Program-made: the position numbers and the translations under genes
Assembly: GCA_964500225.1 (NCBI GenBank)
Contig: CAZCOA010000002.1
Coordinates: forward strand, 37,022 to 101,021
Length of the DNA: 64,000 nucleotides
Source: an uncultured Anaerolineaceae bacterium
GTDB lineage: Bacteria > Planctomycetota > Phycisphaerae > FEN-1346 > JAACEH01
Direction: 5' to 3'
Shown here: positions 19,323 through 63,680 of the stretch, piece after piece
How the letters are laid out: each line of letters opens with the position of its first letter
How positions within the stretch are numbered: position 1 is the stretch's first letter
Notes under the pieces: model-generated
What the model was told of the DNA's origin: nothing
Databases searched by the model: none
Seen by the model: the letters and a program-made list of their open reading frames with translations, nothing else

Positions 19323-22300
19323 GTGGGCAGCAGAAGGAACCATCCGTCACGCGTCATGGCCGTGGTCGCGGCACTGGCGGCCGTGTGGCTGGCCGGCATG
19401 ACGGCGCAAGCGGCGTCGGCGCCCGCCTCGGAGTCTCCGGCGGCCGAGTCTTCTGATGCGCAGCCGGCGGCGCCGACGCCGGGCGCCGGGCAGACCGATG
19501 CCGATGCGCCCGCCGCCGAGAAGCCGTCGGAGCCGGCGGGCCCCCACCCCGACGTATCCGACGAGGACAAAGCCCGGGCCGTGTACCACTACGCCTTGGC
19601 GCGCGAACATATCGCCGCCGAGCGATTCGACGAGGCCATCCACGAACTCGAAGAGGCCGCGCGGCTGGATCCTGGCAGCGCACTGATCCTGCGTGAGCTG
19701 GCCGACGTATATCAGCAGAAGGGCAACGCCGCCAAATCGCAGGAGATTTACGGGCGCATCCTGGCCGCCAACCCGGACGATACCGAGGCGATCTACGGTC
19801 TGGGCAGGTATCACCTGAACCGGAACGATTTCGACAAGGCCGCCGACTGCTTCCGCCAAGTGGTCGAGAAATCGAAGGATGCAGCGTCGGACCGCTTCGT
19901 CGGCCTGTCGCTCTATTTGTTGGGCCGCATCCACGCGTCGCAGAAAAACATGGCCGAGGAGGCGGCCGCATACGACCGCCTCGCCCGCTGGCTGGACCAG
20001 TCGCCGGCGGCAATGCAGCGCGACGCCGAACTGTCGCGCATGGTCGATCCGCAGTTTCTGCACGTGCTGGTCGGTCGCACGGTGCAGCTCTACATGCGTG
20101 TGAAGGAACCGGCGAAGGCGGTTGCCCTGCTGAAGGAAGTGACCGGCGTGCTGGAGAAGCCTGGGCTTGGCCCGTCGGCGGTGCTGTGGCTGCTGAACAA
20201 CCAACAGAACGATCTGGCCCTGGATCTGGCGATGGAGATTCAGCGGCGGCGCACGGACGACGAGTCCGCCTATCATCTGCTGGCCCGGGTGTTCGGCCAG
20301 TCGAACAACCACGAAGGGTTCATCCGGACGTTCCGCGAGTTGGCCGAGCGGCACCCGCATCTGAGCGTAATCCGGATGCTGCTGGGTCAGGAACTGCTGC
20401 GGACCGGCGACGTGGAGGCGGGTGTGGCGATGATCGAGGCGGTGCTCGATGGAACCGACCCGCGTCTGCCCGGCCACGTGGCCGACAGCTCGATGCCCGC
20501 AACGATTCAGGCACTGCTTGCCAAGGGTGACACGGCTGCAGCCCTGAAGTTGGCGCTGGCTGTGCAGCGGCGATGGCCGACGGACGCCGAGAGCTATGAG
20601 CTGCTGAAGCAAGCCTACGACAAGCATAGCGACGACGAGATGTTCCTGAAGAAGTTCCGCGAGTTCCACGAGGCACAGCCCGGGCTGTCTATCGTGACGC
20701 GGCTGCTCGGCGAGAAGCTGATCCAGATGGGTCGCGGCGATGAAGGCGCACAGCTGTTGGAGGAACTGGTTGCGTCATCCGATCCGGTCGTGGTCGGGGC
20801 GGCGCGCACGAACCTGTTGGCCTATTATCAGACCGGCCGGCAGCCGGCGCATGTGCTCAAGCTGTACGCACAGGCTGTGTCGGAGAAGAAAGACTGCGAG
20901 TCGCAATACTGGCGTTTGCGGTCGCGGCTGCTGCGGCTCCAATCGCGCGACGATGCACCGTCAGAGGAGTTTCAACGGTTGCGGCGCGAGGCCGCCGAGC
21001 AGGAGCAGCAAATCGAACAACTCGACGCGCTGGTACGGCAGCTTGCGGATTTCATCGACACGATTGAGGATCGCGGGGCTGTTCTGGCCGATCTGCGCAC
21101 GCTGTTGGCCGACGAGTTGCGGTCGGGGCCTGGACCGGCGTTCGTGCTGGGCATGGTGGCCCAGATGGACGATCCGGCGGCGGCAGCCGAGGATTTCCGG
21201 ACGGTCCTGGAAGTGAACCCTGGGTTCACTCGCGGATATGAGCGCCTGACGGCCGTGCTGATCCGCCTGGACCGGCTGATGGATGCACTGGACGTGTCGC
21301 GCGAGGCGGTGGAGCGGCTGGATAGTCTCGGGTGGAAGAGCGTGTTTTTCCGCCGCATGGCGCGGATCTACGAGATGGTGGATCGGGACGCCGACGCGAT
21401 CATGACGTATCGCACGATTCTGAAGCTGAACCAGGGCGATAACGGGTCGCGGTACAATCTGTCGGGCGTTCTGGCCCGCATCGGTCGCACGGCAGAGGCC
21501 CGTGCGTTGATGGAGGAATCGATCGAAGCCGATCCCGCGTCGTCGCGGCCGTATGTGGAATTGGCGATGTTTCTTCGGGACCAGGGAGACGTGGACGGGG
21601 CCCTGTTGGCCTTGGATCGCGGCCTGGACCAAGTGACGGACGAGGATCAGTTGGGCCTCCTGCTGTACTACCGAGCGATGCTGCTGGAGGACCGCGGCGC
21701 GTCGGACGAGGCAATGGCCGTGATCGACCGCCTGGAGGCCATGGCTGCCTTCGAGCAAGACGCCCGGCAACTTCGGGCCGACGTGCTGATGTCGATGGAA
21801 AAGTACGACGAGGCTCGCAAGCTGATCGACGCGATGGTGGCCTCCAAGCCCGACGACAGCGAGGCGATGCAGTTGCTGGCCACGTGGCACGAGCGTCGAG
21901 GCGAGCCGGAGAAAGCCGAAGAGCTGATGCAGGCCATTCTGAAGAAGCACCCGCGCGACAGCGGAGTCAACAACAACCTCGGCTACATGTGGGCCGACCG
22001 GGGGGTGCGACTGGCCGAGAGTGAGCAGATGATCCGCCTGTCGCTCCAGGAGAATCCCGAATCGTCGGCCACGCTGGACAGCCTTGGCTGGGTGCTCTAC
22101 AAACAGAACCGGCTGGACGAGGCGCTCGTGTACCTTCAGCGAAGCGTGCGCCTGAGCCCGCAGGCTAGTCCCGTGATCTGGGACCACCTGGGCGATGCGC
22201 TGGTGCGGCTGAACCGCCTGGATGAGGCGCGTGCGGCGTACCGGCGTGCGGCCGAGCTGCTTGAGCGGCGACACGTGCGTTTGCAGCGGGACGAGCAGTT

Positions 22301-22412
22301 GATCCGCGAGCTGGTGCCGCGGAAGCTGGAGGCGCTGGATCAGGGGAAACCTGTGCCGACGGCGCCTCTGGGCAGAGACCTATCCGAAAAGGACGGAGCC
22401 ACAGGGCAATAG
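19323..22412 (+). CDS. secreted tetratricopeptide-repeat protein
   Basis: Signal peptide MAVVAALAAVWLAGMTAQAASA, then Ala/Pro/Glu-rich linker, then >20 TPR-like repeats over ~950 aa. Start may be 19356. Confidence 0.7.
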   Translation: MGSRRNHPSRVMAVVAALAAVWLAGMTAQAASAPASESPAAESSDAQPAAPTPGAGQTDADAPAAEKPSEPAGPHPDVSDEDKARAVYHYALAREHIAAERFDEAIHELEEAARLDPGSALILRELADVYQQKGNAAKSQEIYGRILAANPDDTEAIYGLGRYHLNRNDFDKAADCFRQVVEKSKDAASDRFVGLSLYLLGRIHASQKNMAEEAAAYDRLARWLDQSPAAMQRDAELSRMVDPQFLHVLVGRTVQLYMRVKEPAKAVALLKEVTGVLEKPGLGPSAVLWLLNNQQNDLALDLAMEIQRRRTDDESAYHLLARVFGQSNNHEGFIRTFRELAERHPHLSVIRMLLGQELLRTGDVEAGVAMIEAVLDGTDPRLPGHVADSSMPATIQALLAKGDTAAALKLALAVQRRWPTDAESYELLKQAYDKHSDDEMFLKKFREFHEAQPGLSIVTRLLGEKLIQMGRGDEGAQLLEELVASSDPVVVGAARTNLLAYYQTGRQPAHVLKLYAQAVSEKKDCESQYWRLRSRLLRLQSRDDAPSEEFQRLRREAAEQEQQIEQLDALVRQLADFIDTIEDRGAVLADLRTLLADELRSGPGPAFVLGMVAQMDDPAAAAEDFRTVLEVNPGFTRGYERLTAVLIRLDRLMDALDVSREAVERLDSLGWKSVFFRRMARIYEMVDRDADAIMTYRTILKLNQGDNGSRYNLSGVLARIGRTAEARALMEESIEADPASSRPYVELAMFLRDQGDVDGALLALDRGLDQVTDEDQLGLLLYYRAMLLEDRGASDEAMAVIDRLEAMAAFEQDARQLRADVLMSMEKYDEARKLIDAMVASKPDDSEAMQLLATWHERRGEPEKAEELMQAILKKHPRDSGVNNNLGYMWADRGVRLAESEQMIRLSLQENPESSATLDSLGWVLYKQNRLDEALVYLQRSVRLSPQASPVIWDHLGDALVRLNRLDEARAAYRRAAELLERRHVRLQRDEQLIRELVPRKLEALDQGKPVPTAPLGRDLSEKDGATGQ

Positions 22413-22426
22413 TAAGGGGACGACCT

Positions 22427-23179
22427 ATGTCGGGACATTCTCATTGGGCGACCATCAAAAGGAAGAAGGCCGGCGTGGATGCCAAACGCGGGGCGGAGTT
22501 CAGCAAGGTGGCCAAGCTGATCACGGTGGCGGCGCGTCACGGCGGCGGGGATCCGTCGATGAACCTGAGCCTGCGGTACGCGATTGAAAAAGCCCGCTCG
22601 GTCAACATGCCTCGCGACAATATCGAACGGGCCATCAAGAAAGGCACCGGCGAATTGCAAGGGGCCGCCCTGGAAAGCCTGCGCTACGAGGCCTATGCGC
22701 CGGGTGGCGTTGCCATCCTGATCGACGCGCTGAGCGACAACCGCAACCGGACGGCCGGCGAAATCCGGTCGATTCTCGAGAAACACGGCGGCAGCCTGGC
22801 GGCGGTGAACTCCGTGGCGCGGCTGTTCGAGCGCAAGGGGACGATTACCGTGCCGGTGGCCGCCGTGAGCGAGGAGCGTATCATGGAGATCGCCCTGGAG
22901 CACGGGGCGGATGACGTCGTCAGCAAGGACGATGTGCACGAAATCACGTGCAGCCCGGAAGCATTCGAGGGACTGGTCAAGGCCCTGGAGACTGCCGGCA
23001 TTCAGCCCCAGCGGGCGGCGGTCGAGCCGCTACCGAGCATCACGGTCCGGCTGGATGCGGACACTGCGGCGAAGGTGCTGAAGTTGATTGAGCTGCTCGA
23101 TGACCATGACGACGTTTCCGAAGTGTATGCCAACTTTGACGTGAGCGACGAGGTGATGGCGCAGTTGCAGAAAGGGTAA
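22427..23179 (+). CDS. yebC: YebC/PmpR family DNA-binding transcriptional regulator
   Basis: MSGHSHWATIKRKKAGVDAKRGAEFSKVAKLITVAARHGGGDPSMNLSLRYAIEKARSVNMPRDNIERAIKKG is near-invariant YebC N-terminus. Confidence 0.9.
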   Translation: MSGHSHWATIKRKKAGVDAKRGAEFSKVAKLITVAARHGGGDPSMNLSLRYAIEKARSVNMPRDNIERAIKKGTGELQGAALESLRYEAYAPGGVAILIDALSDNRNRTAGEIRSILEKHGGSLAAVNSVARLFERKGTITVPVAAVSEERIMEIALEHGADDVVSKDDVHEITCSPEAFEGLVKALETAGIQPQRAAVEPLPSITVRLDADTAAKVLKLIELLDDHDDVSEVYANFDVSDEVMAQLQKG

Positions 23180-23226
23180 GCCGCCCGCCCTGCCCTACCG
23201 CGCCGAGGAACTCTTTTTGTCCGCGT

Positions 23227-24681
23227 TTGCAGACGATGGGTGACACTATGGCGGATCCCGAAAAAGTCGTCAAATTGCTCAATAAGAAGGCGGTGCAGTC
23301 GGTGTTCCGCCGCATCACGCGGCGGCGCAGCGACGGCGGCTGCACACTGGCCGACTTCTTTCGGGCCTATGCCACGGGCGAGATGAGCCTTGCTCAGCGA
23401 GCGAAGTTCGCCATGCCGATGTGGATCACCGAATACATCCGCAAGCGCACGGGGGCGTCGCGTGACACGCTGCGCCGCCGCGTTTTCGGCCACGGGCCAA
23501 CGGCCCGCGCCCTGGTCAACACGGTCCGCAGCGTGGGTCACTATGGTCTCACGGAGCCGCAGCAGTTCGTCGCGCCGCTCATGGTGGTCTGGAACTTCAC
23601 ACAGGCGTGCAACTTCCGATGCCAACATTGCTACCAGAATGCACATAGGGCCCTGGACGACGAGTTGACGCCCGAGGAGAAGATCGCCGTCGTGGATCGC
23701 CTGGCAGCCATGGACGTGTCGATGCTGGCGTTCTCGGGCGGCGAGCCGCTCATGGGCCGCCATTTCTGGGAAACCGCCCGGCACGCCGCGGACGTGGGAT
23801 TCCACATGTCCGTGGCCACCAACGGATCGCTCTGCACGCCCGAGAACGTGCAACGGCTGGTGGATTGCGGTATCGGCTACACTGAGATTTCGCTCGATTC
23901 GATCGATCCGGCCAAGCACGACCACTTCCGCGGCGGCAAAGGTTATTGGGAGGCCGCGGTCCGTGGCATCGACAACTGTGTGGCCCACCCCCACATGAAG
24001 ACGGGCGTGGCCACCACCGTGACGAAGCTGAATATCGACGAGCTGGAGCAGATCATCCAGTGGGCGATCGACCGCGGGGTTGATACGTTCTACGCCTTCA
24101 ACTTCATTCCGACAGGCCGCGGCAAAGATATTGTCGATATGGATCTGTCGCCGAGCGAGCGCGAGCGGATGTTGGCGATTCTCCAGAAGACGCTGCTGGA
24201 GGACAAGATCGCCGTGATGAGTTCGGCGACGCAGTACGGCCGCGCGTGCATCGAGCTGGGCGACGCCGAGTCGCCCATCAACACGGGACATTACGGCTAC
24301 TCGTCGGGCAAGAAAACGCGGATTCTGGCCAAGTACGTCGGCGGTTGCGGCGCGGGGCGATGCTACTGCGCGATCCAGCCCAACGGCAAGGTCACGCCCT
24401 GCGTGTTCATGCCCATCGAGATCGGCGACATCCGGCAGGACGACTTCGAGCAGATGTGGCTCAACGATCCGCTGCTGAAGGTGCTGCGCGACCGCGAGGA
24501 CCGCACCGGCCACTGCAAGGTTTGCCAATACAAGCACTATTGCGGCGGCTGCCGGGCCCGTAGTTACGGCTACTTCGGCGATGTCCGCAAGAGCGACCCC
24601 GGCTGCAAGTTCAACGAGGCCGAGTGGCAGGAAGTGCTCGCGGCATCGGCTCGTGCGGCGGATCAGGCCGCGGGGCAGTAG
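23227..24681 (+). CDS. radical SAM/SPASM-domain protein (NirJ/AhbC/AhbD/PqqE-like maturase clade) with ~110-aa N-terminal extension
   Basis: CNFRCQHC (CX3CX2C) preceded by VVWNFTQA. Glycine-rich SAM motif SGGEPL. C-terminal SPASM cysteines (CGAGRCYC...GKVTPC...CKVCQYKHYCGGCRARS...DPGC). Confidence 0.75.
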   Translation: MQTMGDTMADPEKVVKLLNKKAVQSVFRRITRRRSDGGCTLADFFRAYATGEMSLAQRAKFAMPMWITEYIRKRTGASRDTLRRRVFGHGPTARALVNTVRSVGHYGLTEPQQFVAPLMVVWNFTQACNFRCQHCYQNAHRALDDELTPEEKIAVVDRLAAMDVSMLAFSGGEPLMGRHFWETARHAADVGFHMSVATNGSLCTPENVQRLVDCGIGYTEISLDSIDPAKHDHFRGGKGYWEAAVRGIDNCVAHPHMKTGVATTVTKLNIDELEQIIQWAIDRGVDTFYAFNFIPTGRGKDIVDMDLSPSERERMLAILQKTLLEDKIAVMSSATQYGRACIELGDAESPINTGHYGYSSGKKTRILAKYVGGCGAGRCYCAIQPNGKVTPCVFMPIEIGDIRQDDFEQMWLNDPLLKVLRDREDRTGHCKVCQYKHYCGGCRARSYGYFGDVRKSDPGCKFNEAEWQEVLAASARAADQAAGQ

Positions 24682-24780
24682 CCACAGGCCCATCCGGCGC
24701 CGCCGGGCAGTTCGGCAGCTCTCCTCTGGACAGCGAACAAGCGAACATCCGTTGTGGGGACGACTCGCGAGCCGCCCCCC

Positions 24781-25959
24781 CTACCCTTTGGCGTGGTGGT
24801 TCAGGGCGGCCTGGGCGTACATAGCGGTCCCCTGCCACAGGACGTCCTCGTCGATGCGGAAGTGGGGATTGTGGTGGGCCGCGGTGATCCCCTTGGCGGG
24901 ATTGCCAACGCCGAGAAAGATCATTGCGCCCGGCACGCGCTGGAGAACGTAGCAGAAGTCCTCGCCGCCAAACTTCTTCTCGACGGGCGTGAGGCGCCCC
25001 GGGCCGAAGAGTTGCTCCGCGGTCGCCTGCAAGTCGGCCGCCACGGCGGCATCGTTGACCACGGTGCCGTACCCGTGGGAAAACTGAAGGTCAATCGTGA
25101 CACCGCAGGCGATTTCGATGCCGTTAACGATGTCGCGGATGAATTTGATGACGCGATTCCTCGTGCGTTCGCAATGGGTCCGCAGCGTGCCGGCCACCTC
25201 GACGGTATCGGGGATGACGTTATAGGCGTCGCCGCCGTGGATCATGCACATGCTGAGGACGCCGACATCGTGCGGTTTGATGCGGCGGCTCATGATGGTC
25301 TGAAGGCTGAGGATCAACTGGGCAGCCGCGACCACGGGGTCAATACACAATTCGGGAGTGGCGGCATGTCCGCCGCGACCGTTGATGCGCAGGGTGATGG
25401 CGTCAGCCTCGGCCATGACGGGCCCGGCCTGGATCCCCCAGAGGCCGGCCTCGTGAGCGGTGAAGACATGAATGGCCAGGGCTCGGTCCACGCCGTCGAG
25501 GACGCCTTCTTCGACCATGGCGGCCGCGCCGCCCGGGGGCTGCTCCTCGGACGGCTGGAACATGAGCCGCACCGACGCCTTCAACTCGCTGCGATGGCGT
25601 GCCAGAAGCCGCGCCGCCCCCAGCAACATGGCCACATGGGCGTCGTGGCCGCACAGGTGCGAGCAGCCGGGGATCTGCGACGTGAAACTTTCACCCGAGG
25701 CTTCCTGGACGGGCAGCGCGTCCATGTCGGCCCGAAGCAGGATGCGTCCGGCGGCGCCGGGCACGTCGAGGTCGCCGACCACGCCGGTCTTGCCGACGTT
25801 GCGTCGCACGGCAAACCCCAGCCGCTCGAGTTCATCGGCCACCACGCCCGCCGTCCGATGCTCCTGGAACCCCAGTTCGGGGTGCTGGTGCAGGTCGCGG
25901 CGCCAGGCGACGATCTGTTCCTGCAATGCGTACGCTTCCTGGGCTATGGATGCACTCAC
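24781..25959 (-). CDS. M20D-family amidohydrolase (N-acyl-L-amino acid / hippurate hydrolase-like)
   Basis: AWRRDLHQHPELGFQE opening, metal ligands (CGHDAH, ...EE...) typical of peptidase M20D. Start chosen at GTG 25959 (VSASIAQ...), giving GTGA overlap with the upstream gene's stop. The ORF could extend to 25992. Confidence 0.75.
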   Translation of the reverse strand: MSASIAQEAYALQEQIVAWRRDLHQHPELGFQEHRTAGVVADELERLGFAVRRNVGKTGVVGDLDVPGAAGRILLRADMDALPVQEASGESFTSQIPGCSHLCGHDAHVAMLLGAARLLARHRSELKASVRLMFQPSEEQPPGGAAAMVEEGVLDGVDRALAIHVFTAHEAGLWGIQAGPVMAEADAITLRINGRGGHAATPELCIDPVVAAAQLILSLQTIMSRRIKPHDVGVLSMCMIHGGDAYNVIPDTVEVAGTLRTHCERTRNRVIKFIRDIVNGIEIACGVTIDLQFSHGYGTVVNDAAVAADLQATAEQLFGPGRLTPVEKKFGGEDFCYVLQRVPGAMIFLGVGNPAKGITAAHHNPHFRIDEDVLWQGTAMYAQAALNHHAKG

Positions 25960-26741
25960 GTTCCGCCCTTTCTCCTGCCTCGCGCGAGCCACTCGGGATC
26001 GGCGAACCGGTCGCGTCGAATTCGCTCGGCGTCCCGTCGTTCCTCGTCCGACAGTTCGGACTGTTCGAAGACAACGTCCAGCGTTTCGGCGAACCGCTCG
26101 GCCAGGGGCCGCGCGAGTTCGTCGAACGTCACTGGGCGTCCGAGCAATTGGGCCAGTCCGAGGGTGGCTTCCTGCCGGTTGTCGTCGAGCATGATCGACC
26201 CGTGCTGGAGAACGCCTCCGTCGGCGCGTCGTTGAGCGCTGCCGGCCAGCTTGAGCGACCGCGCGATTATATCGGTGGAGCCGGCGCGGGCGAAGCAGAA
26301 AAACGGGCCCCGCTGGGCGCGCTCGCCGCGCTGCTCGCCGCGCACTTCCACCGTACCCCCCAGGTCGGCCACGGCCGCCACGATCGCGCGGTTGACCAGG
26401 TCGTAGAGCATCGGGCCGTCCAGCAGGTCTGCCGGCACGGCCACCGAGTAGGTGAGCTCCTGATCGTGGAGAATGGCGCCGCCGCCGGTAGCGCGGCGGA
26501 CCACGGGCCAGCGGTCACGGACGTCGGGCGGTATCTCGTCGAGAGACTGGAAGTACCCCAGCGACAGGGTCGGCCGATTCCAGGCGTAAAGACGCAGAGC
26601 AGGCCGCCCCCCACGGGCCACCTGCTCGAGCAAGACCTGGTCCACCGCCATGTTCCAGTCGCCGGGCGAAGGTGGATGAATAATCAATCGCCACGGGCCG
26701 TTCACGGGGTCACCTTCGGCATCCGGTCCATCACTTGGCAT
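25956..26741 (-). CDS. lipoate-protein ligase / octanoyltransferase family protein (BPL/LPL catalytic domain only)
   Basis: Internal ATG 26741 (MPSDG...). RRATGGGAILHD motif of LplA/LipM/LipB catalytic domain. 261 aa with no LplA C-terminal domain. Overlaps the gcvPB stop by ~11 nt. Confidence 0.7.
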   Translation of the reverse strand: MPSDGPDAEGDPVNGPWRLIIHPPSPGDWNMAVDQVLLEQVARGGRPALRLYAWNRPTLSLGYFQSLDEIPPDVRDRWPVVRRATGGGAILHDQELTYSVAVPADLLDGPMLYDLVNRAIVAAVADLGGTVEVRGEQRGERAQRGPFFCFARAGSTDIIARSLKLAGSAQRRADGGVLQHGSIMLDDNRQEATLGLAQLLGRPVTFDELARPLAERFAETLDVVFEQSELSDEERRDAERIRRDRFADPEWLARGRRKGGT

Positions 26742-28191
26742 CGTCCCACATGTAGCGCAGGTCGAGGTCCTTGGCGGCACGGACTTCGTCGGCACGGCTG
26801 ACGGACGTCGCGTGCGGCGCGTTGTGGAGTTTGTCGGCGTCGGCCTTGGCCTCGGCGACAATGTCGGCCAGCACAGAGGCAAACCCATCGAGGGTCCGTC
26901 GCCGCTCGGTCTCCGTGGGCTCGATCATCATGGCCTCGTCCACGATCAGCGGGAAGTAGACCGTCGGCGGGTGGATGCCGTAATCGATGAGTCGTTTGGC
27001 CACGTCGAGCGTCCGAACGCCGTAAGCCTTCTTCAGCGGCGTGCCCGAGAGGACGAACTCGTGCATGCAGTCGCCGGCATAGGGAGTGGCGAATTCCTTG
27101 GGGCACTTGCTCTGGAGGTAGCGTGCATTGAGAACGGCATTCTCGGCGACCTCCCGGACGCCCTTGGCGCCAAGACGACGGAGATAGCAGTACGCCCTCA
27201 GGAGGACGCCCGTCTGGCCGAGGAAAGCACGCACGCGGCCGATGCTCTTGGGGCGTCCCGTATCCACCAGGTGGAACACGCCGGTCTCGCTGCGTTCGAT
27301 CGTCGGCACGGGCAGGAACGGTACGAGGTCGGCCGCCACGGCGATCGGTCCGGCGCCGGGTCCGCCGCCGCCGTGAGGCGTCGATAGCGTCTTGTGCGTA
27401 TTGATGTGCAGTGCATCGGCGCCCCAGTCGCCCGGGCGAGAGATACCAAGAATCGCATTGAGGTTGGCCCCGTCGATGTACAGCTTCGCGCCGACGCCGT
27501 GCAGAAGCTTTGCCACTTCGCCGACATCGGTCTCGAACAGGCCGAGGGTGTTCGGGCACGTCAGCATCATCCCGGCGACGGACGGGTCGAGCTTGCTTCG
27601 CAGGTCGTCCAGGTCGATGAGGCCGCGCTCATTCGAGCGAACCTGAACGATCTTGAATCCCGCGATGGCCGCACTGGCGGGATTGGTGCCGTGGGCGCTG
27701 TCGGGGACGAGGATCGTGGTCCGCCGCTCGCCGCGATCGCGGAACCAGGCAGCAAACATGAGCATGGCGGTCAGTTCGCCGTGGGCGCCGGCAGCCGGCT
27801 GGAGGCTCACGCCCGGCAATCCGGTGATCTCCTTGAGCATCTCCTGGAGCTGCCACAGGATCGCCAGCGTGCCCTGGCAGTCTTCGTCGAACTGGTACGG
27901 GTGAAGGCCGGTGAATTCGGGCATCGACGACAACTGTTCGTTGACCCGCGGGTTGTATTTCATCGTACACGACCCGAGGGGATAGAAGTTGGTGTCAACC
28001 GAGAAGTTTTCGCGGCTCAGCAACGTCAGGTGCCGCACGACGCTGCGCTCGGCCACCTCGGGCAATCGCGGCGGCTTGCGACGGAGCAGATTCTCCGGCA
28101 GGACCGGTCCGGTGTGGGGCACGTCCGAGGGGGGAAACTCCACGGCTCGCTGGCCGGGTTGCGACTTCTCGAAGATCAACGGTTCCGGCAT
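26731..28191 (-). CDS. gcvPB: glycine dehydrogenase (aminomethyl-transferring) subunit 2
   Basis: 486 aa. MPEPLIFEKSQPGQRAVEFP... N-terminus and PLP-lysine region typical of GcvPB. Confidence 0.9.
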   Translation of the reverse strand: MPEPLIFEKSQPGQRAVEFPPSDVPHTGPVLPENLLRRKPPRLPEVAERSVVRHLTLLSRENFSVDTNFYPLGSCTMKYNPRVNEQLSSMPEFTGLHPYQFDEDCQGTLAILWQLQEMLKEITGLPGVSLQPAAGAHGELTAMLMFAAWFRDRGERRTTILVPDSAHGTNPASAAIAGFKIVQVRSNERGLIDLDDLRSKLDPSVAGMMLTCPNTLGLFETDVGEVAKLLHGVGAKLYIDGANLNAILGISRPGDWGADALHINTHKTLSTPHGGGGPGAGPIAVAADLVPFLPVPTIERSETGVFHLVDTGRPKSIGRVRAFLGQTGVLLRAYCYLRRLGAKGVREVAENAVLNARYLQSKCPKEFATPYAGDCMHEFVLSGTPLKKAYGVRTLDVAKRLIDYGIHPPTVYFPLIVDEAMMIEPTETERRRTLDGFASVLADIVAEAKADADKLHNAPHATSVSRADEVRAAKDLDLRYMWDDAK

Positions 28192-28214: not shown

Positions 28215-29549
28215 CTACTGGCTGACGGCGGCAATGAACGCATCGAGTTCGGCGCGGGTGCGTTTTTCGGTGACGGCCACGAGGAGTCGGTTGCTCATCT
28301 GCGGATAGAACCGTGCCAAGGGCACGCCGCCCAGGATGCCGCGCTTGGCGACGCGGGCCAACACGCGGTCGGCGTCCTGGTCGCATTCGAGGACAAACTC
28401 CTTGAAGAACGGGGCCGAGTAATGGATTCGGAAGCCCTTGATTTGCGAGAATTTCTCGGCCAGGTAATGCGCCTTGGCCGCACAGAGACCGGCCACCTCC
28501 TTCAGGCCGGCCGCGCCTACGAGCGACAGGTACAGCATCGCCCGGACGGTCATCAGGCCCTCATTCGTGCAGATGTTGCTGGTGGCCTTCTCGCGTCGGA
28601 TGTGCTGTTCGCGCGTCTGAAGGGTCAGACAGAAGCACGGCTTGCCGTGGTGGTCCACCGTGCGTCCGACGAGCCGCCCGGGAATCTGACGCACGAACTT
28701 CTTGCGCGTGGCCAGGAACCCCAGGGACGGACCGCCCATATTCATCGGCAGCCCCAGCGACTGCCCCTCGCCGACGGCGATGTCGGCCTCGTACTCGCCC
28801 GGCGACGCCAGCAGCCCCAGGCTGATCGGATCCACGCTCGCGACCAGCAGCGCACCGACCGCGTGGGCCAGTTCGCTCAGTTTCTCCATCGGCTCGATCA
28901 CACCGAAGAAGTTGGGCGTCTGGGTGATCACGCACGCCGTATCGTCGCCCAAAAGACCCGCGATGGTTTCCACGTCCGTCATTCCGTGTTTCCAGGGCAC
29001 GGTCACGGGCTCCAGGTCCGTGTTGATCAGGTACGTCTTCAGACACGCCAACGACTCCGGGTGCAGCGTCTGGGAGACGATGATTTTGCGTCGCCGAGTA
29101 ATGGCGGCGGCCATCAGGGCCGCCTCGGCCACGGCACTGGCGCCGTCGTACAGCGATGCGTTGGCCACTTCCATGCCCGTCAACTCGGCAATCATCGTCT
29201 GGTATTCCCAGAGGATCTGGAGTGTGCCCTGGCTGGCTTCGGCTTGGTATGGGGTGTAGCTCGTCAGGAACTCGCCGCGCGACGCTAATGCGTCAATCGC
29301 CGACGGAATGAAATGGTCGTAAATGCCGCCGCCCAGGAAACTCACCATGTCGCCGGCCGGACGATTCCGCTTGGCCAGGGCGCGCACGTGGCGGACCAAC
29401 TCCATTTCGGTCTCGGCCGGAGGCAGTTTCAGGTCGCCCTTGAGCCGCAGCGCCTCGGGGATGCTGTGGAACAGTTCGCTGTGCCGGGTCAGGCCCAGTT
29501 CAGCGAGCATTTCTTTCTGTACGTCGGGAGGATTGCCCAGGTAAGCCAC
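28215..29549 (-). CDS. gcvPA: glycine dehydrogenase (aminomethyl-transferring) subunit 1
   Basis: Start chosen at GTG 29549 (VAYLGNPPDVQKEMLAELGL...) with AAAGGA 8 nt upstream. Homology to GcvPA over the full length. Confidence 0.85.
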   Translation of the reverse strand: MAYLGNPPDVQKEMLAELGLTRHSELFHSIPEALRLKGDLKLPPAETEMELVRHVRALAKRNRPAGDMVSFLGGGIYDHFIPSAIDALASRGEFLTSYTPYQAEASQGTLQILWEYQTMIAELTGMEVANASLYDGASAVAEAALMAAAITRRRKIIVSQTLHPESLACLKTYLINTDLEPVTVPWKHGMTDVETIAGLLGDDTACVITQTPNFFGVIEPMEKLSELAHAVGALLVASVDPISLGLLASPGEYEADIAVGEGQSLGLPMNMGGPSLGFLATRKKFVRQIPGRLVGRTVDHHGKPCFCLTLQTREQHIRREKATSNICTNEGLMTVRAMLYLSLVGAAGLKEVAGLCAAKAHYLAEKFSQIKGFRIHYSAPFFKEFVLECDQDADRVLARVAKRGILGGVPLARFYPQMSNRLLVAVTEKRTRAELDAFIAAVSQ

Positions 29550-29571
29550 GACAGGATCCTTTCTGGATGCG

Positions 29572-29955
29572 TCAATGATCGGCAAGGGCCTTGTCGTACT
29601 CGGCGGCATCCATCAGATCGTCCAGCTCGGACGGATTTGACATGCGGACCTTGAGGAGCCACCCTGCCCCGAAGGCGTCGGACGAAATGATCGACACGTC
29701 GTCCAGCACGGCCTGGTTGACCTCGATCACTTCGCCGCTAACGGGCGAATTCAGCTCGCTGACCGCCTTGACGCTCTCGATTTCGCCGAACGACTGGCCC
29801 GCGCTGACGGTGTCGCCCACCGACGGCAGGTCGATATAGACCAGATCCGTGAGCTGCTCGGCGGCGTGCTGCGTGATGCCCACCACAGCCGTCGGCCCTT
29901 CCGCGCGGCACCACTCGTGCGATTCGGTGTACTTGCAGCCCTTCGGATTGCTCAT
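29572..29955 (-). CDS. gcvH: glycine cleavage system H protein
   Basis: Internal ATG 29955. 127 aa with lipoyl-lysine motif ESVKAVSELNSPVSGEV. Confidence 0.9.
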   Translation of the reverse strand: MSNPKGCKYTESHEWCRAEGPTAVVGITQHAAEQLTDLVYIDLPSVGDTVSAGQSFGEIESVKAVSELNSPVSGEVIEVNQAVLDDVSIISSDAFGAGWLLKVRMSNPSELDDLMDAAEYDKALADH

Positions 29956-29968
29956 GATGCGTCCCTTT

Positions 29969-31051
29969 CTATGCCCGTAGCAACAACTGCCCCAGCTCGA
30001 CCACCGTGGCCTGCTCTCTGCGGCCGCGGATATCCACGGAGACGGTACGACCGGCTGTGGCCGACGACGCCTCCAGCATCGCCTGGGCGATCGGCGCCTC
30101 ACGCAGCGGCGACCATGTCCCGCTGGTGACGCAACCCGCCTCTACGTCGCCATCATAAACTGGCATATTCTCACGTGCGATGCGTCGGCCTGTCAAGACA
30201 AGACCCATCCGCTTGCGGGAAATTCCCATGTCGTACCGCCGCTGCATCTCGTCCCGGCCTACGAACTGCTTATCCAGGTTGATCGAGTAGCCTAGGCCCA
30301 GTTCCCACGGGCTGGACGACTCGCGCAGCTCGTGTCCGTAGAGGGGCAGCGCGGCCTCGTTCCGCAGGGAATCCCGGGATCCGAGGCCGCACGCCGCCGC
30401 CCCCGCCTCACGCAACGCCGCCCACAGCGACGCAACTGCTTCGGGGGAACCGTAAATCTCGTACCCGTCGCCGCCCGTGTAACCGCTACGAGAACCGCAC
30501 AGCACGTCGCCGTTCCGCGGCGCACTCCACAGATGATATCGGCGCCGCGTCTGGGCGTCGGCCTCGGGCCAGACACGATCCAGCAGGGCGGCCGATGCCG
30601 GGCCTTGAATCGCCATCATAGCCGTCTCGAACGTAATGTCCTGAAGCAGGTGGCCGTAGCCAAGACGTTCGATGTGGGCGACCACGCGCTCGCGGTTCGC
30701 GGCGTTGACGATCAGTTGCCAGGCATCGCGCCGCCGCGCCACCATCACATCGTCCAGGATGTTGCCCTGCGCATCGACGACGAAACTGTAGCGAATGGCC
30801 GACACCGTCATCGTGCCGGTTCGCCGGGTGAGCAGCCGCTCGACGGCCTCGTCGGCCCCGTGACCGCGAAGCAGCAGGCGACCCATGTGGGAGATGTCGA
30901 ACAGCCCCGCGTGCCGCCGGACGGCCAAATGCTCGGCCACAATCCCCTCGAACTGGACCGGCATGCGCCAGCCGGCGAAATCCACCCACGTCGGCCCATC
31001 CTTGGCGGCCACATCGGCCAATGGCGTCGTTCTGGCAGTATCCTGCAGCAT
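29969..31051 (-). CDS. gcvT: glycine cleavage system aminomethyltransferase T
   Basis: 360 aa. ...GLFDISHMGRL... and full-length GcvT similarity. GGAGGA 5 nt upstream of the ATG. Confidence 0.9.
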   Translation of the reverse strand: MLQDTARTTPLADVAAKDGPTWVDFAGWRMPVQFEGIVAEHLAVRRHAGLFDISHMGRLLLRGHGADEAVERLLTRRTGTMTVSAIRYSFVVDAQGNILDDVMVARRRDAWQLIVNAANRERVVAHIERLGYGHLLQDITFETAMMAIQGPASAALLDRVWPEADAQTRRRYHLWSAPRNGDVLCGSRSGYTGGDGYEIYGSPEAVASLWAALREAGAAACGLGSRDSLRNEAALPLYGHELRESSSPWELGLGYSINLDKQFVGRDEMQRRYDMGISRKRMGLVLTGRRIARENMPVYDGDVEAGCVTSGTWSPLREAPIAQAMLEASSATAGRTVSVDIRGRREQATVVELGQLLLRA

Positions 31052-31100
31052 GTGTTCCTCCGCAAAAGGAGCCCAACCTGTAGTAGCACCCCCCTGCCAA

Positions 31101-31122
31101 AATTGTGACCGCCGTCACAATT
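31101..31122. promoter_or_regulatory. perfect CRP/FNR-type palindrome in gcvT 5'UTR
   Basis: AATTGTGACCGCCGTCACAATT, i.e. TGTGA-N6-TCACA with 9-bp perfect arms. Lies at about +9 to +30 relative to the predicted gcvT transcription start. Confidence 0.5.
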
Positions 31123-31137
31123 TCAGTAGGAGGCCGC

Positions 31138-31166
31138 AGTATAGGGCCGACCCGACGCGGATGCAA
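31138..31166 (-). promoter_or_regulatory. sigma70-type promoter of the gcv operon
   Basis: Minus-strand TTGCAT(31166-31161)-N17-TATACT(31143-31138). About 70-nt 5'UTR to gcvT ATG 31051. Confidence 0.5.
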
Positions 31167-31219
31167 GGCCAATTCCGACTGTTTTCGCAGGGATTCTTAC
31201 CAGGTACTCCGGGCCGGGG

Positions 31220-33976
31220 TCACGGCAGCGCGCGGCCCAGAAAGCCTCTGATAGCTCGTATATCTGCCGACGTCAGGTTTCCCGAACCATCCACGTCCAT
31301 GCGCAACGTCGTCGCGGTCAGTGCTGCGCCGGCCGCGCCGCGGGCCGCCAGCATGTCTGCGCTGGTCACCGCGCCCGAGCCGTCCACGTCGCCGGCCAAG
31401 CAGGCGAACCGCCGTGCCACGTCCCCGCCAAACGGCTGGCCGCGGGAGTCGCGGATCGTGTCCAGAACCGTCATCGTGTACCGGTCGGCGTCGGGAAGCG
31501 GTCCGTCAAACGTCACGGTCACCGTCCGATGGTCGGCCGAGAGTGCGGTCTCGACGATCCTGGCCGACAGGTCGCCGCCGGACTGCCCGACAAGCGAGAA
31601 ACCCGACGGGGCGACCGTGGCCGGGTCGGCGGGCTTGCTGAGCGAGACCTCGACCTGCCTGACACCGGCAGCGGGACTGTAGACGAACTCCTCCGGGCAA
31701 GACACGCTGTGCGTCGTGGTTCCGTGGACGCTCGGGAGGGTCCACCCGATGACCTTCCCCGGGGCCGGCGTCTCGAACACGTAGATGTTGACGCCGATGG
31801 GGTTGAAGGCGTCCTCGAACGTGCCGCCCGGACCGGCGGTCCGTTGCCGCTGCTGATCATAGACGGTGATGGTCGTTCCCTCCGGGAGCCCGTCCACCGT
31901 GAACCGCACGGTCTGCGGCGTCCGTTCCAGGTTGACGGCGAACACGTAGAGATTCGCGCCATCGGTCGTCGCGCGGATGTCCACGCGACCCCCGGTCGTC
32001 ACCTCGTGCGTCACGGCCACGGGCGACTCCTCGCCCAGGATCGCCTCGGTCAGGGCCGCGGTCTGATCCACAAAGCGGGTCATGGCAACGTAGTTCTCGG
32101 GCGGCACGGTGCCCTGGTACGGATACCAGTGGATGCCTTTGGCCTGGTGAACGATGGAAAGCCAGCAGACGAAGTCGATCTCGGCCGGCGTCGGCGTGCC
32201 GCCGCCGGAGCCCACCGTCACATCTGCAACGGCTACGTTGGGGATAACCGGCACGAGGCCCATGTTCCATCGGACGGCCTGGTCGGCCACCTGGGCATAG
32301 GCGGCGAAGTTGCCGCTGGAGGTGTTTTCGTTCTCGATGGGGTAGATGTCCCAGGAGTAGATGTCGGCGCACAGGTACGGCCAGATCATGTAGGTCAGTT
32401 CGCCGCGCAGCAGGCCGATCTGAAACGAGCTGCCCATTTCGAGCAGTTCGGTCATGCGTGAGGGGTTGTGCTGCTTGACAAGGTCCCACCAGAGCTTCTG
32501 CGACGCGCCGTCGTAGCCGAAATTGATGGGCTCCTCGCGCCACATCCACCAGGCCACACCCGGATGGTCGGCCAGTTCGGTAAGGTACTCCTCGACGGCC
32601 TCCGGGTTCCACGGAGGCAGGCCGTTACGGTCGAAACGGTAGTCGTGGGCCGGGCCGATCACGGTCATGCCGGCCGCGGCCGCGGCATCCAGATACCGTC
32701 GGTAGCCCGGAACGCCCGGGGGATCGCTGACCCATTCCATCCCATAGAGCATGTTGCAGTAGCGGTTGTCTCGCCAGAGGGGGATCCGGCTCCGCGATAG
32801 CCCGAACGACGTCACGGGAAAGATACGTTGCCCGTTGCGTACGATGGCGTTATCGGCGTCGATGGAGTACTGCGGATTACCGTCGAACGACTTGCGATAG
32901 CTGTACTGTGCGGCGGCCCGTTCCTGCCGCGAGGCATCCAACAGGCGAACGGTCAGGGTATAGTCGGCGGCGGGCAGGTCGCGCAGGTCCACTCGGAAGT
33001 CCGCGCGGCCGTTCAGGGGCCCGTCGCACGTGTACACCGTCCGGTTCAGTCCCAGCGTGCTTGTGAGCTTCGCCTCGACGACGTCCGAGGGCTGGTCGCC
33101 GGTCAGAATCGCCACGACAGGAGCGCCGACGCGCGGCACAAAGCATGGGTGGGCCAGTTGGACGGCCACATCGACCGTGCCGATGGGAGCGTCGTGGACG
33201 ATCACGTCGTCGATGAAGAGCGATCCGCCGGTGGCGGGGGCGCTGGAGGCGGCCGAGAGCAGCCCCACGTTGATGCCGTCGGGCCGCGTCGGCAGCGACA
33301 ATCCGGTCAGGGTGGCTTCGGGAGCGTCGTCGAGGTAGACCGTCAGCGAACCCGTGGGGTCGCCAACGCCGTAGCGGACCTCGATGCAGTACCATCGGTC
33401 GAGGACAAGGTCGGTGGCACCGGTCGCCGTGGCTGCGCCGACAATGGCATGCAACCGAAGGCTGCCGCCGACGTTGCGGATGCCTGCCTGGGCCAAGTGA
33501 CCGGCGTAGCTGCCCGACGGCGGCGGGTTGAACGTGCCGAACGAGAGCAGCGAGATGGACTGGCCGCTCTGGACGGCGAAGTCGGGACCGAGGCGGACAT
33601 AGGCCCGGAGGCACACCAGGTCGCCGATGGTTCGCGGGGCCGAGGTGAACTGCCCCCAGAGCAGGGCGCTGCGGCTCGAGACGGCCGTCTTGGGGATGGA
33701 GAACCGGGCCGAGTAGCGGCCGGAGCGGCGATGCTCGGTGCTGAGTTCGACGACGCCACCCTGGCCGGTGACGACGCGGCGGTACTTGCCGAGATCCCCC
33801 TCTTCCATGGTGAAAGAAAGTAACGTGTCGGGAGCCGGATAGGTGACGCTCGCGGCCGCGGCTCGGGAACCAGACCCTGCGACCGCGGCCAGCGCGGCCA
33901 CAACGGCCACAACACCAACCGTCGGCCACGGTGTGCGGCGCGGGGTCATCAAACCTGTTTGCCGGAACAGACGCAT
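31220..33976 (-). CDS. secreted multidomain protein: LamG/concanavalin-like domain, glycoside-hydrolase-like TIM-barrel region, C-terminal type I dockerin repeats
   Basis: Internal ATG 33976 with GGAGG SD (the listed ORF carries a 122-aa Arg-rich artefactual extension). Signal peptide MRLFRQTGLMTPRRTPWPTVGVVAVVAALAAVAGSG. Dockerin repeats DVDGSGAVTSADML...DVDGSGNLTSADI at the C-terminus. Confidence 0.55.
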   Translation of the reverse strand: MRLFRQTGLMTPRRTPWPTVGVVAVVAALAAVAGSGSRAAAASVTYPAPDTLLSFTMEEGDLGKYRRVVTGQGGVVELSTEHRRSGRYSARFSIPKTAVSSRSALLWGQFTSAPRTIGDLVCLRAYVRLGPDFAVQSGQSISLLSFGTFNPPPSGSYAGHLAQAGIRNVGGSLRLHAIVGAATATGATDLVLDRWYCIEVRYGVGDPTGSLTVYLDDAPEATLTGLSLPTRPDGINVGLLSAASSAPATGGSLFIDDVIVHDAPIGTVDVAVQLAHPCFVPRVGAPVVAILTGDQPSDVVEAKLTSTLGLNRTVYTCDGPLNGRADFRVDLRDLPAADYTLTVRLLDASRQERAAAQYSYRKSFDGNPQYSIDADNAIVRNGQRIFPVTSFGLSRSRIPLWRDNRYCNMLYGMEWVSDPPGVPGYRRYLDAAAAAGMTVIGPAHDYRFDRNGLPPWNPEAVEEYLTELADHPGVAWWMWREEPINFGYDGASQKLWWDLVKQHNPSRMTELLEMGSSFQIGLLRGELTYMIWPYLCADIYSWDIYPIENENTSSGNFAAYAQVADQAVRWNMGLVPVIPNVAVADVTVGSGGGTPTPAEIDFVCWLSIVHQAKGIHWYPYQGTVPPENYVAMTRFVDQTAALTEAILGEESPVAVTHEVTTGGRVDIRATTDGANLYVFAVNLERTPQTVRFTVDGLPEGTTITVYDQQRQRTAGPGGTFEDAFNPIGVNIYVFETPAPGKVIGWTLPSVHGTTTHSVSCPEEFVYSPAAGVRQVEVSLSKPADPATVAPSGFSLVGQSGGDLSARIVETALSADHRTVTVTFDGPLPDADRYTMTVLDTIRDSRGQPFGGDVARRFACLAGDVDGSGAVTSADMLAARGAAGAALTATTLRMDVDGSGNLTSADIRAIRGFLGRALP

Positions 33977-44071: not shown

Positions 44072-44096
44072 CCGGATTGTGACGTCGCCGGCGGCA

Positions 44097-52600: not shown

Positions 52601-53784
52601 CGATTCCCCACCAAGGAAAACAGACACACGGCCATCACGGCCGCGAAATCCACCAACTGATCCACCTCGATCGACTCGTTTGCAACGTGCTCGGTGTTCG
52701 GATCGCCGGGGCAGATACCGATGGCCGGAATCCCTGCCTCGATAAATTGCTTGGCGACGGTCGCGCCGCTCATGCCGAAGGGACTCGGTCGCCTTCCCGT
52801 GACGGACTCCACGGCGTCCGACAGCGCCCGGTACACGTCCGAATCCGTCGGCGCCTGCGTCGGCACGTCCTCGGTCATCACCTCGACCTCGAAGACGGTG
52901 CCGGGGTACTTGCGCTCGAGGCGGTCGATCACATTGCACACCGCCGCCAGCAGTTCGTCGCGGTCCGTTCCCGGCAGGTACCGCATGTCCACCTGCATCT
53001 CGCACGTGGCCGGAACCATGTTCACGGCCGCGCCGCCCGCAATGACCCCCACATTTTTTGTCGGACCCGGCGGCACGAATAGCTCGTTCGTTCCGCCCGG
53101 CATGTGCCACTTGTTCAGCCACAACGCCAGCTCGGCCAGCGGGTAGATGGCGCTCGCGCCCGAGTGCGGCCGCGAGCCGTGCGCCTGGCGGCCGTGGCAG
53201 CGGATTTTCAGAAACAGCAGCCCCTTCTCGGCCACGTCGATGGTTTCCATCCGGTGCCCGGCGTCGGGGACAATCGCTGCGTCGAACCGGCGGAACTGCG
53301 GCTGCTTCAGCAGAAACCGCGTACCGAATTCGCTGCCGCACTCCTCGTCGGCTACCCCGAGCAACAGCACCTGACCGGCCAACTCGTCCTCGTGCTCCTT
53401 GAGCAGCTCCACCGCCGCCAGGCACGAGGCCAGGGGCCCCTTATTGTCTTTGACACCGCGGCCATGGATGCGGCCCCTGCGCACCGTCGCCTTGAACGGG
53501 TCGGTTTTCCACCCATCGCCGGCCGGCACCGTGTCCAGGTGGCACACGACGGCCACCCGCGGACGCCCTTGGCCCACGCAGCCGACGATGTTCGTGCGGC
53601 CGGGGGCCTTTTCCAATTTCTCGTAGGGAATCCGGCGCCGCCGGAAGAACTTCTCGACGACCGCCGCCGCGGCCTGCTCGTTACCCGGCGGATTGACCGT
53701 TCTGGCGGCGACGAGGTCGCCTAGACACGCCACAATCTCTTTGCGCCGCCCGCGTACCTGCGCGATGATGTCCTGGGGTTCCAT
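52597..53784 (-). CDS. M20-family metallopeptidase (ArgE/DapE/acetylornithine deacetylase-like)
   Basis: Metal-binding blocks VVCHLDTVP, GVKDNKG, LLGVADEECGS and the dimerisation domain. Start taken at ATG 53784 (MEPQD...). A TTG at 53814 is the alternative. Confidence 0.8.
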   Translation of the reverse strand: MEPQDIIAQVRGRRKEIVACLGDLVAARTVNPPGNEQAAAAVVEKFFRRRRIPYEKLEKAPGRTNIVGCVGQGRPRVAVVCHLDTVPAGDGWKTDPFKATVRRGRIHGRGVKDNKGPLASCLAAVELLKEHEDELAGQVLLLGVADEECGSEFGTRFLLKQPQFRRFDAAIVPDAGHRMETIDVAEKGLLFLKIRCHGRQAHGSRPHSGASAIYPLAELALWLNKWHMPGGTNELFVPPGPTKNVGVIAGGAAVNMVPATCEMQVDMRYLPGTDRDELLAAVCNVIDRLERKYPGTVFEVEVMTEDVPTQAPTDSDVYRALSDAVESVTGRRPSPFGMSGATVAKQFIEAGIPAIGICPGDPNTEHVANESIEVDQLVDFAAVMAVCLFSLVGNR

Positions 53785-53826
53785 ACGGATCCGGTCGCCA
53801 CGGATCGAGCTCAACGGCGGGATCGT

Positions 53827-54303
53827 TCAGGACTCGTCCCGTTCGCCGGCCTCGACCTCGCTAAGGTAGGCCAATGTCCGCTCGAGTTCGCTCTTCAGGT
53901 GACGCACACGAAGCAGGCTCCGCACTCGTGTCAGCAACTCCAGCTTGCTGATCGGTTTGCTCAGAAAGTCGTCCGTGCCGGCTTCCACCGCCCGCTCGAT
54001 GTCTCCCGTCTCCGTCAGGGCCGTCACCATCACGATCGGGATGTCCTGCGTCTTCTCGTCGGACTTCAGTTTGCGGCAGATTTCAAAGCCACTGACCTTC
54101 GGCATCATGATGTCCAGAAGGATCAGGTCCGGGTTCTCCGCGGCCACCTTCTCCAGCGTCTCCTGGCCGTCGTACGCCACCACCACGTCGCACCCCAGAT
54201 CGTCCAAGTATGCCTGGAGCAGTTCGCAGTTCTGCACGTTGTCGTCGGCCACAAGAATCTTCGATCGCTTGTCCTGACTTGCCGGCTGACTCATGCCTGC
54301 CAC
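53827..54303 (-). CDS. stand-alone response-regulator receiver (CheY-like) protein
   Basis: KILVADDNVQNCELL...LILLDIMMP...VMVTAL...SKPI with phospho-acceptor Asp context. No output domain. Confidence 0.8.
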   Translation of the reverse strand: MAGMSQPASQDKRSKILVADDNVQNCELLQAYLDDLGCDVVVAYDGQETLEKVAAENPDLILLDIMMPKVSGFEICRKLKSDEKTQDIPIVMVTALTETGDIERAVEAGTDDFLSKPISKLELLTRVRSLLRVRHLKSELERTLAYLSEVEAGERDES

Positions 54304-54440
54304 TCCGTCGCCCCCTCATGCTTTCCGGCCGGGCGACCCGATGTCGCCCCGCTCTGCCTGCCGACGCTTCCAGCCACAACGTCCGCCCGACGTGCCGCGG
54401 CATGGATATCGCGCCCGTGCCGCGAGACGGCCGCGCCTGA

Positions 54441-63599: not shown

Positions 63600-63650
63600 G
63601 CCGTCGGGGATACCGGCATCGGTTGCGCGGTAACGTCCTTGCGTGGGCCG

Positions 63651-63680
63651 TATTACTTCGATATACTTCGTAATACTTAC
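63651..63680 (+). repeat. AT-rich triple direct repeat upstream of porin gene
   Basis: TATTACTTCGA / TATACTTCG / TAATACTTAC: three tandem copies of a (T)ATACTT core, 30-60 nt upstream of ATG 63713, in GC-rich surroundings. Confidence 0.45.

Follow-up and report, generated by a model that had tools for sequence, protein, structure and literature searches.

In many bacteria the usual cis-regulator before gcvT is the glycine riboswitch (RF00504). In E. coli, CRP reportedly activates gcv from a far-upstream site. Operators of the CRP/FNR family, such as E. coli CRP AAATGTGATCTAGATCACATTT, show 22-bp two-fold symmetry with a TGTGA-N6-TCACA core and A/T-rich flanks, and members of the family repress when their site overlaps or follows the promoter. 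The E. coli gcvTHP operon is under GcvA, a LysR-type activator/repressor acting at upstream sites, and GcvR, a glycine-binding accessory protein (PMC7382830), whilst glycine cleavage in Shewanella is controlled by GcvA, HexR and a purine regulator (PMC3223726). The CRP/FNR-type regulator HcpR of Desulfovibrio has the consensus TTGTGA-N6-TCACAA, and those of its sites that overlap promoters have been read as repressive (PMC545781). A similar palindrome, TTGTGAA-W4-TTCACAA, is the consensus of the Rex operator (ROP; PMC2883068), from which Rex acts as a repressor, binding in or downstream of promoters (PMC5355995).

Here we describe the upstream region of a gcv operon found in a 64-kb stretch of DNA (hereafter the window) that belongs to an uncultured Phycisphaerae lineage of anaerobic digesters and sediments. 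To our knowledge the planctomycete phylum has been little studied for transcriptional regulation, and a literature search found nothing on transcriptional regulation of the gcv operon in Phycisphaerae. The riboswitch is absent at this gcvT, and just downstream of the predicted promoter there is a 22-bp palindrome that is very probably, from its pattern of conservation, a real repressor-binding site. Control therefore appears to be protein-mediated and riboswitch-free, as in E. coli, although the motif and position of the GcvA/GcvR system are unrelated to those of the palindrome (PMC7382830) and none of the Shewanella regulators resembles the gcvT site (PMC3223726). The operator is an ordinary kind of control element and challenges no existing concept. 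What the ten-genome footprint of UP-like A-tract, -35, -10 and operator offers is a promoter model applicable to this group, a defined motif (WWWTGTGAY-N4-GTCACAWWW) for regulon and regulator searches, and an example of glycine-cleavage control with neither riboswitch nor GcvA.

Predicted promoter, putative operator and operon at gcvT

The features of the region are as follows.

31167..31204, minus strand: conserved, UP-element-like block 5' of the -35 hexamer, with the A-tract GAAAAC (31186-31181)
31161..31166, minus strand: predicted -35 hexamer TTGCAT, read from the sequence; TTG kept in the orthologs
31138..31143, minus strand: predicted -10 hexamer TATACT, read from the sequence; TATA[A/C]T in all 10 orthologs
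31101..31122, no strand assigned: putative 22-bp operator AATTGTGAC-GGCG-GTCACAATT, core TGTGA-N6-TCACA at 31104-31119
31052..31100, minus strand: rest of the short 5'UTR, with the Shine-Dalgarno sequence GGAGG (31061-31057), read from the sequence
29969..31051, minus strand: gcvT, aminomethyltransferase (Pfam GCV_T, GCV_T_C)
29572..29955, minus strand: gcvH (Pfam GCV_H), start ATG at 29955
28215..29609, minus strand: gcvPA, glycine dehydrogenase subunit 1 (Pfam GDC-P)
26731..28191, minus strand: gcvPB, glycine dehydrogenase subunit 2 (Pfam GDC-P, GcvP2_C)
25956..26705, minus strand: lplA-like, lipoate-protein ligase-like (Pfam LplA-B_cat), likely start GTG at 26705
24781..25959, minus strand: M20 peptidase, last gene of the operon (Pfam Peptidase_M20, M20_dimer)

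On the minus strand the elements follow one another in the order GGCC TTGCAT CCGCGTCGGGTCGGCCC TATACT GCGGCCTCCTACTGA AATTGTGAC GGCG GTCACAATT TTGGCAGG...GCGGAGGAACAC ATG. The predicted -35 and -10 hexamers (31166-31161 and 31143-31138) are separated by 17 nt, within the 16-18 nt of a sigma-70-type promoter layout, and we place +1 at about 31131. The palindrome itself, AATTGTGACGGCGGTCACAATT at 31122-31101, has 9-bp perfect arms around a 4-bp spacer and ends 50 nt from the gcvT ATG (31051); with +1 at about 31131 it would lie at about +10 to +31 of a 5'UTR of some 80 nt. Thus the initial annotation was right about the palindrome and about its place just downstream of the predicted start of a TTGCAT-N17-TATACT promoter on the minus strand. 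Its term 'consensus promoter' was too strong: the -35 hexamer agrees with TTGACA at only three of six positions (the -10 box at five of six) and a consensus promoter scan of the window did not call the gcv promoter, although TTG and TATAMT are still invariant among the orthologs. The block at 31167..31204, which resembles an UP element, is identical in the window and its closest relative (L001, see below), with AAAA columns that are invariant in a 7-sequence alignment. The sole other near-match to the gcv promoter pattern in the window, TTGCGT-N17-TATACT (63639-63667, plus strand), lies just past a dihydroorotate dehydrogenase-like gene.

The earlier statement that the leader holds no glycine riboswitch, and has no room for one, was borne out. 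No Rfam family reached the gathering threshold in the window or in 13 related loci, and within the 500-nt region 30900-31400 RF00504 gave no match even at E up to 10, the sole match at that level being a chance hit to ybhL inside the upstream gene. The 5'UTR of the window is too short for a glycine riboswitch, and it is similarly short in most orthologs, the exception being L014, which has a longer leader. In L123 the leader looks long most likely because its start codon was placed too far downstream: closer to the site there is a TTG, and also a Shine-Dalgarno sequence. In six of seven aligned orthologs the UTR (window 31057-31086, minus strand) carries a semi-conserved C(A/T)ACAACA(G/T)NTTG some 20 nt downstream of the operator. 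A small CUCC...GGAG hairpin in the window could mask the Shine-Dalgarno sequence and may be a second, translational layer of control.

The six genes of the operon are closely packed, with short gaps or overlaps, in DNA of about 65% G+C (the window as a whole); the GTG start of the M20 peptidase, for example, overlaps the stop codon of lplA (GTGA). The lplA-like orthologs are 235-256 aa long. The peptidase occupies the same position in all loci of the clade, and its presence in the operon suggests that glycine is freed from peptides or N-acyl-glycines. Where enough downstream sequence is available (window 22265-26705, L013-L018), gcvTHPaPb-lplA-M20 peptidase forms a clade-conserved block that continues on the opposite strand with radical-SAM/SPASM, YebC/TACO1 and large TPR protein genes; the upstream neighbour of gcvT differs between loci. 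A second peptidase of the M20/M28 type (52597-53814) adjoins a receiver-only response regulator (53827-54315) elsewhere in the window (52597-54315, minus strand). In L001 an insertion of about 130 nt with nested inverted repeats (cggacatcttgcccgtgg ... ccacgggcaagatgctcg; L001:3700-3835), which looks like a REP/MITE-type element, separates the stop codon of the upstream gene from the gcv promoter; the window is without it.

Conservation of the palindrome

Within the window the full 22-mer pattern, allowing up to three mismatches, is matched once against an expectation of 0.01, whereas the bare core TGTGA-N6-TCACA with up to one mismatch is also matched once against 1.2 expected. The core count is at chance level, so the window alone is no proof of function. 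We accept function because the site is conserved in all ten of the orthologous upstream regions, so that it survives the test set by the initial annotation, which would have been refuted by a unique palindrome that orthologous gcvT upstream regions do not conserve. The closest relative in the genome collection, L001, is a Phycisphaerae MAG from an anaerobic digester whose GcvT is 93% identical, and among the GcvT homologues identities of 62-93% mark out a tight clade, beyond which they fall to 46%. The ten distinct upstream regions are those of the window and of the Phycisphaerae/Planctomycetota MAGs L001, L013, L014, L015, L017, L018, L122, L123 and L124. All ten present an A-tract, TTGCNN or TTGTCC, 17 nt, TATA[A/C]T, 8-19 nt and then the palindrome. 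The putative operators other than that of the window are:

L001: AATTGTGACCGCGGTCACAATT
L013: AAATGTGACCCAGGTCACAATC
L014: TAATGTGACCTGCGTCACATTT
L015: AAATGTGATGCGTGTCACATTT
L017: TTTTGTGACGCTGGTCACAATT
L018: AAGTGTGATGCGTGTCACATTT
L122: CGATGTGACCTGGGTCACATAT
L123: GAGTGTGACCTGCGTCACATAT
L124: TTTTGTGACCGTGGTCACAAAA

Eleven core bases (T4-A8 and G14-A19) are invariant in 10/10 sites, position 9 is C in eight and T in two, positions 10-13 vary freely and the flanks are A/T-rich, which gives the clade consensus stated above. In the 7-sequence alignment the only other invariant columns are AAAA, the TTG of the -35 hexamer and TATA.T of the -10 box. The remaining UTR has diverged even between the window and L001, and nearly all of the UTR around the sites is variable. 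The invariant core together with the AAAA, TTG and TATA.T columns constitutes a classic phylogenetic footprint of a promoter plus operator. No such site is present at two more distant planctomycete gcvT genes (46% identity), which stand in another gene context, after sdhAB.

The arm sequence GTCACAAT at 44076-44083 had been singled out as a lone half-site of the same kind, and we attribute it to chance: the window holds three matches, including the two arms of the palindrome, against 1.25 expected, and this copy lies 14 nt beyond a stop codon without a partner half-site.

Position of the site and proposed mode of action

The ten orthologous sites begin 8, 13, 14, 14, 17, 17, 18, 18, 18 and 19 nt past the -10 box, without fixed helical phase. 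Taking +1 to be about 7 nt past the -10 box, the centre of the site falls between about +10 and +21, always within the polymerase footprint. Such varying distance without helical phasing suits a steric repressor and not a class I or class II activator. We consider it probable, on the strength of the conserved sequence and its placement, that the palindrome is the 22-bp operator of a homodimeric helix-turn-helix repressor acting on the gcv operon. Class II activation of a downstream promoter was considered and rejected, there being no -10-like hexamer 30-35 nt past the site centre in the window or L001. A terminator of the upstream gene was rejected also: the hairpin is separated from that gene by the promoter, and the loci do not share the same upstream neighbour.

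According to the proposed mechanism, a putative homodimeric helix-turn-helix factor, encoded elsewhere in the genome, would bind the operator, which spans about +3/+10 to +25/+31 of the predicted sigma-70-type start, a stretch covered by RNA polymerase. Once bound, the factor would keep polymerase from binding, from forming the open complex or from escaping the promoter, and the six-gene operon (gcvT-gcvH-gcvPA-gcvPB-lplA-M20 peptidase) would be repressed until an effector releases the factor. The sequence, position and conservation of the site and the lack of a riboswitch are observed; in this scheme we infer where transcription starts, that a protein binds, the direction of control, and which regulator family and effector are involved. 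The initial annotation had read the 5'UTR site as implying repression or a roadblock; negative, protein-mediated control is indeed the best reading of its placement and variable distance, but occlusion of the promoter appears more likely than an elongation roadblock, because the site lies within the polymerase footprint and that of L124 begins only about 8 nt after the -10 box.

When transcribed, a palindrome will always form a hairpin in the RNA as well. It is formally conceivable, though in our judgement very unlikely, that the element conserved here works as RNA, a stem-loop at the very start of the gcv transcript that would stabilise it, bind a protein or serve as an attenuator. The window sequence folds into a 19-bp hairpin that includes G-U pairs (-25.8 kcal/mol, z -6.9) and the core hairpin folds in every ortholog; moreover, the three flanking pairs (columns 12-14/31-33) and the outer seven (5-11/34-40) show weak covariation, their complementarity being somewhat above that of shuffled or slid controls, and five of the 13 departures from perfect symmetry in the 10-sequence alignment are G-U-compatible on the sense strand. 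Against a selected RNA stem, no core pair shows a compensatory change: five of the six never vary, and in the remaining one C-G is replaced by U-G only; the core-pair pattern of the 10-sequence alignment as such gives no information for or against RNA. The loop is unconserved, the opposite of what is seen in protein-bound RNA hairpins. With the 22-mer fixed, the outer 11+11 nt fold no better than shuffles (mean z -0.34, Fisher p 0.27), and a signal arises only once positions 12-14 and 31-33 are released (Fisher p 0.002), these being the A/T-rich palindromic flanks of the 22-mer. The null result of the flank shuffles thus points to conservation of sequence and not of an extended RNA helix, and the latter was rejected on this ground and because L001 does not keep the 19-bp hairpin of the window with its outer extension. 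In orthologs whose site starts 8-14 nt past the -10 box, transcription would begin too late to include most of the outer 5' arm. A U-tract is not consistently present (only some orthologs have a U-rich 3' flank), a terminator scan calls no terminator, the Rfam search of the window and 13 loci was negative as described, and the conserved sequence is a well-known DNA-binding consensus. Taken together, a conserved stem sequence, a free loop and a classic DNA-binding consensus argue for a dimeric DNA-binding protein, to whose action the unavoidable 5' RNA hairpin may add an accessory effect.

Candidate regulators

If the palindrome is an operator, a CRP/FNR protein would, in our estimate, be about as probable a ligand as all alternatives combined, with Rex and some other family taking equal and clearly smaller shares; we rank CRP/FNR above Rex, and Rex above any other family taken singly. 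The CRP/FNR family fits best because of the 5-6-5 geometry, exact in the window and all 10 orthologs, and the A/T-rich flanks. The gcvT sites have the two-fold symmetric core of CRP/FNR operators, resemble them in part over the full 22 bp, and are placed where members of that family repress. When compared with the E. coli CRP 22-mer (AAATGTGAT....ATCACATTT), the sites agree at 10-17 of 18 specified positions, L015 reaching 17 of 18. Single Desulfovibrio HcpR sites, which include aTGTGAccTgcaTCACAg and TTGTGAcAgcTgTCACAA, are nearly identical to gcvT sites (PMC545781). However, unlike the E. coli CRP consensus (T9/A14), the gcvT sites carry C9/G14 and come without sign of a large regulon; the invariant G14 and the C9 of 8/10 sites fit the Rex consensus (A9/T14) no better. 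The assignment to a CRP/FNR-family factor made in the initial annotation thus agrees with the geometry, but the family label is tentative, given that the Rex operator shares geometry and placement, that C9/G14 is off both consensuses and that neither a CRP/FNR nor a Rex gene was found in the sequence available. Its broader conclusion, that glycine cleavage is under protein-mediated control, is supported by the putative operator in a repressive placement and the lack of a riboswitch, with that family label and some overstated details set aside.

Searches for a regulator gene and for further sites covered the window and about 126 kb from six related loci (about 190 kb in all, seven genomes). With E. 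coli queries phmmer found no homologue of CRP, FNR or LacI among the ORFs of at least 80 aa, and Bacillus and Thermus queries found no Rex homologue either there or in the 103 metagenome loci described below. Pfam detected no DNA-binding regulator in 30 further ORFs of the window apart from the syntenic YebC/TACO1, a family now seen mainly as a translation factor. The gcvT operator is the sole strong PWM match in the window and in each orthologous locus, and a permissive PWM scan of the same 190 kb found no second site of at least 13 bits apart from the gcvT sites. Such scarcity does not look like a global CRP regulon and suggests that the regulon is small or the factor a dedicated one.

The glycine cleavage enzyme complex uses NAD+/NADH. 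This would fit the possibility, which we regard as unlikely, that the site is a ROP and that NADH/NAD+-sensing Rex binds TTGTGAC-N4-GTCACAA, tying the glycine cleavage system or the reverse glycine synthase reaction to redox. A small regulon would fit the lack of other sites in about 190 kb. ROP and gcvT site are both 18-bp palindromes of identical half-site spacing, Rex targets are NAD(H)-linked, and the gcvT sites match the Rex consensus at 10-12 of 14 specified positions (PMC2883068). Footprinted or EMSA-positive Streptomyces ROPs include TTGTGACCTGCTTCACAT and TCGTGACGACAGTCACAA (PMC5355995), and the gcvT site, starting 8-19 nt past the -10 box in all orthologs, has a repressor-type placement with respect to the predicted start. 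However, the seventh base of the half-site is A/T in ROPs and C/G in gcvT sites: the Rex-defining A7/T12 are replaced by C (or T) and G in 10/10 orthologs, although single validated ROPs tolerate off-consensus bases at A7/T12 (PMC5355995). The base before TGTGA is T in only 4/10 sites, and TTGTGA is present in only about half of the gcvT half-sites. Nor did the homologue searches find Rex in the available sequence, no paper was found on a Rex repressor in Planctomycetes, and gcv is not among the Rex targets named in PMC2883068 and PMC5355995. The M20 peptidase, moreover, suggests glycine catabolism yielding NADH, for which de-repression at high NADH would be counter-intuitive.

Dedicated regulators are usually adjacent to their targets. 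In every locus with usable flanks no regulator gene adjoins the operon, which weighs against a dedicated regulator from some other family sharing only the TGTGA/TCACA core, such as a local glycine- or one-carbon-responsive repressor; we think such a regulator quite unlikely. It would account for a site unique to gcvT in about 190 kb and for C9/G14, atypical of CRP and Rex alike, and the exact 22-mer occurs in many unrelated metagenomic contexts (ParB, bestrophin, PTS), so that several factors appear to use such palindromes. Of the known types, LysR/GcvA sites lie upstream of promoters and LacI-type spacing misfits. The symmetric lac operator (Osym), AATTGTGAGCGCTCACAATT, agrees with the window sequence in the outer 8 bases of each arm (AATTGTGA). 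Osym, however, is 2 bp shorter, its half-sites lying that much closer together than those at gcvT, and it has a central CG step that the gcvT site lacks; nor do the orthologs keep the AATT flank. A LacI-family operator was therefore rejected, on spacing, on a variable centre (GGCG, CCAG, CTGC and others), on unconserved flanks and on the lack of a LacI homologue in the window and the six loci, and we regard the resemblance as a coincidence of the window sequence.

A CRP/FNR or Rex protein could itself be the dedicated, small-regulon repressor of glycine cleavage in this clade, either as a CRP/FNR protein that responds to a new effector, for instance glycine or a one-carbon/folate metabolite, or as a Rex variant of altered specificity. 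We hold this to be rather improbable. Were it true, the CRP/FNR protein would functionally replace the glycine riboswitch, and the Rex variant would make the glycine cleavage/synthase reaction of anaerobic planctomycetes dependent on NADH/NAD+.

Metagenomes were scanned for the exact 18 specified bases, which occur at 103 loci. Only L035 among these belongs to a gcvT ortholog, and its operator and adjoining flanks do not differ from those of L001; the others range from 29 to 71% G+C and lie in unrelated contexts (PTS, ParB, bestrophin, racemase and others), which makes the scan uninformative on the regulon of this lineage. A CRP/FNR gene lies within a few kb at just 2 of the 103 loci. Several of the palindromes found are observations in their own right. 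One with an ACGT centre (AATTGTGACACGTGTCACAATT) occurs in L030 (287-715), L081 (1276-1297), L019 and L082, contigs that we take to be termite-gut-derived. L030 carries four copies, three spaced by 116 bp and the fourth 175 bp further on, and L081 one copy 37 nt upstream of a ParB gene; these copies may represent a parS-like centromere array. A 38-bp perfect palindrome, ATATATACAAATTGTGACGATCGTCACAATTTGTATATAT, is found in nine contigs of 43-49% G+C (L020, L021, L027, L051, L062, L074, L090, L092 and L107). Finally, AATTGTGACAATTGTCACAATT is kept in eight contigs of about 60% G+C (L029, L036, L040, L060, L061, L083, L106 and L110) and in five of them (L036, L040, L060, L061 and L106) it precedes a 302-aa ORF by 66 nt, the ORF of L036 being a bacterial bestrophin by Pfam; the palindrome looks like another conserved operator, in an unrelated lineage.
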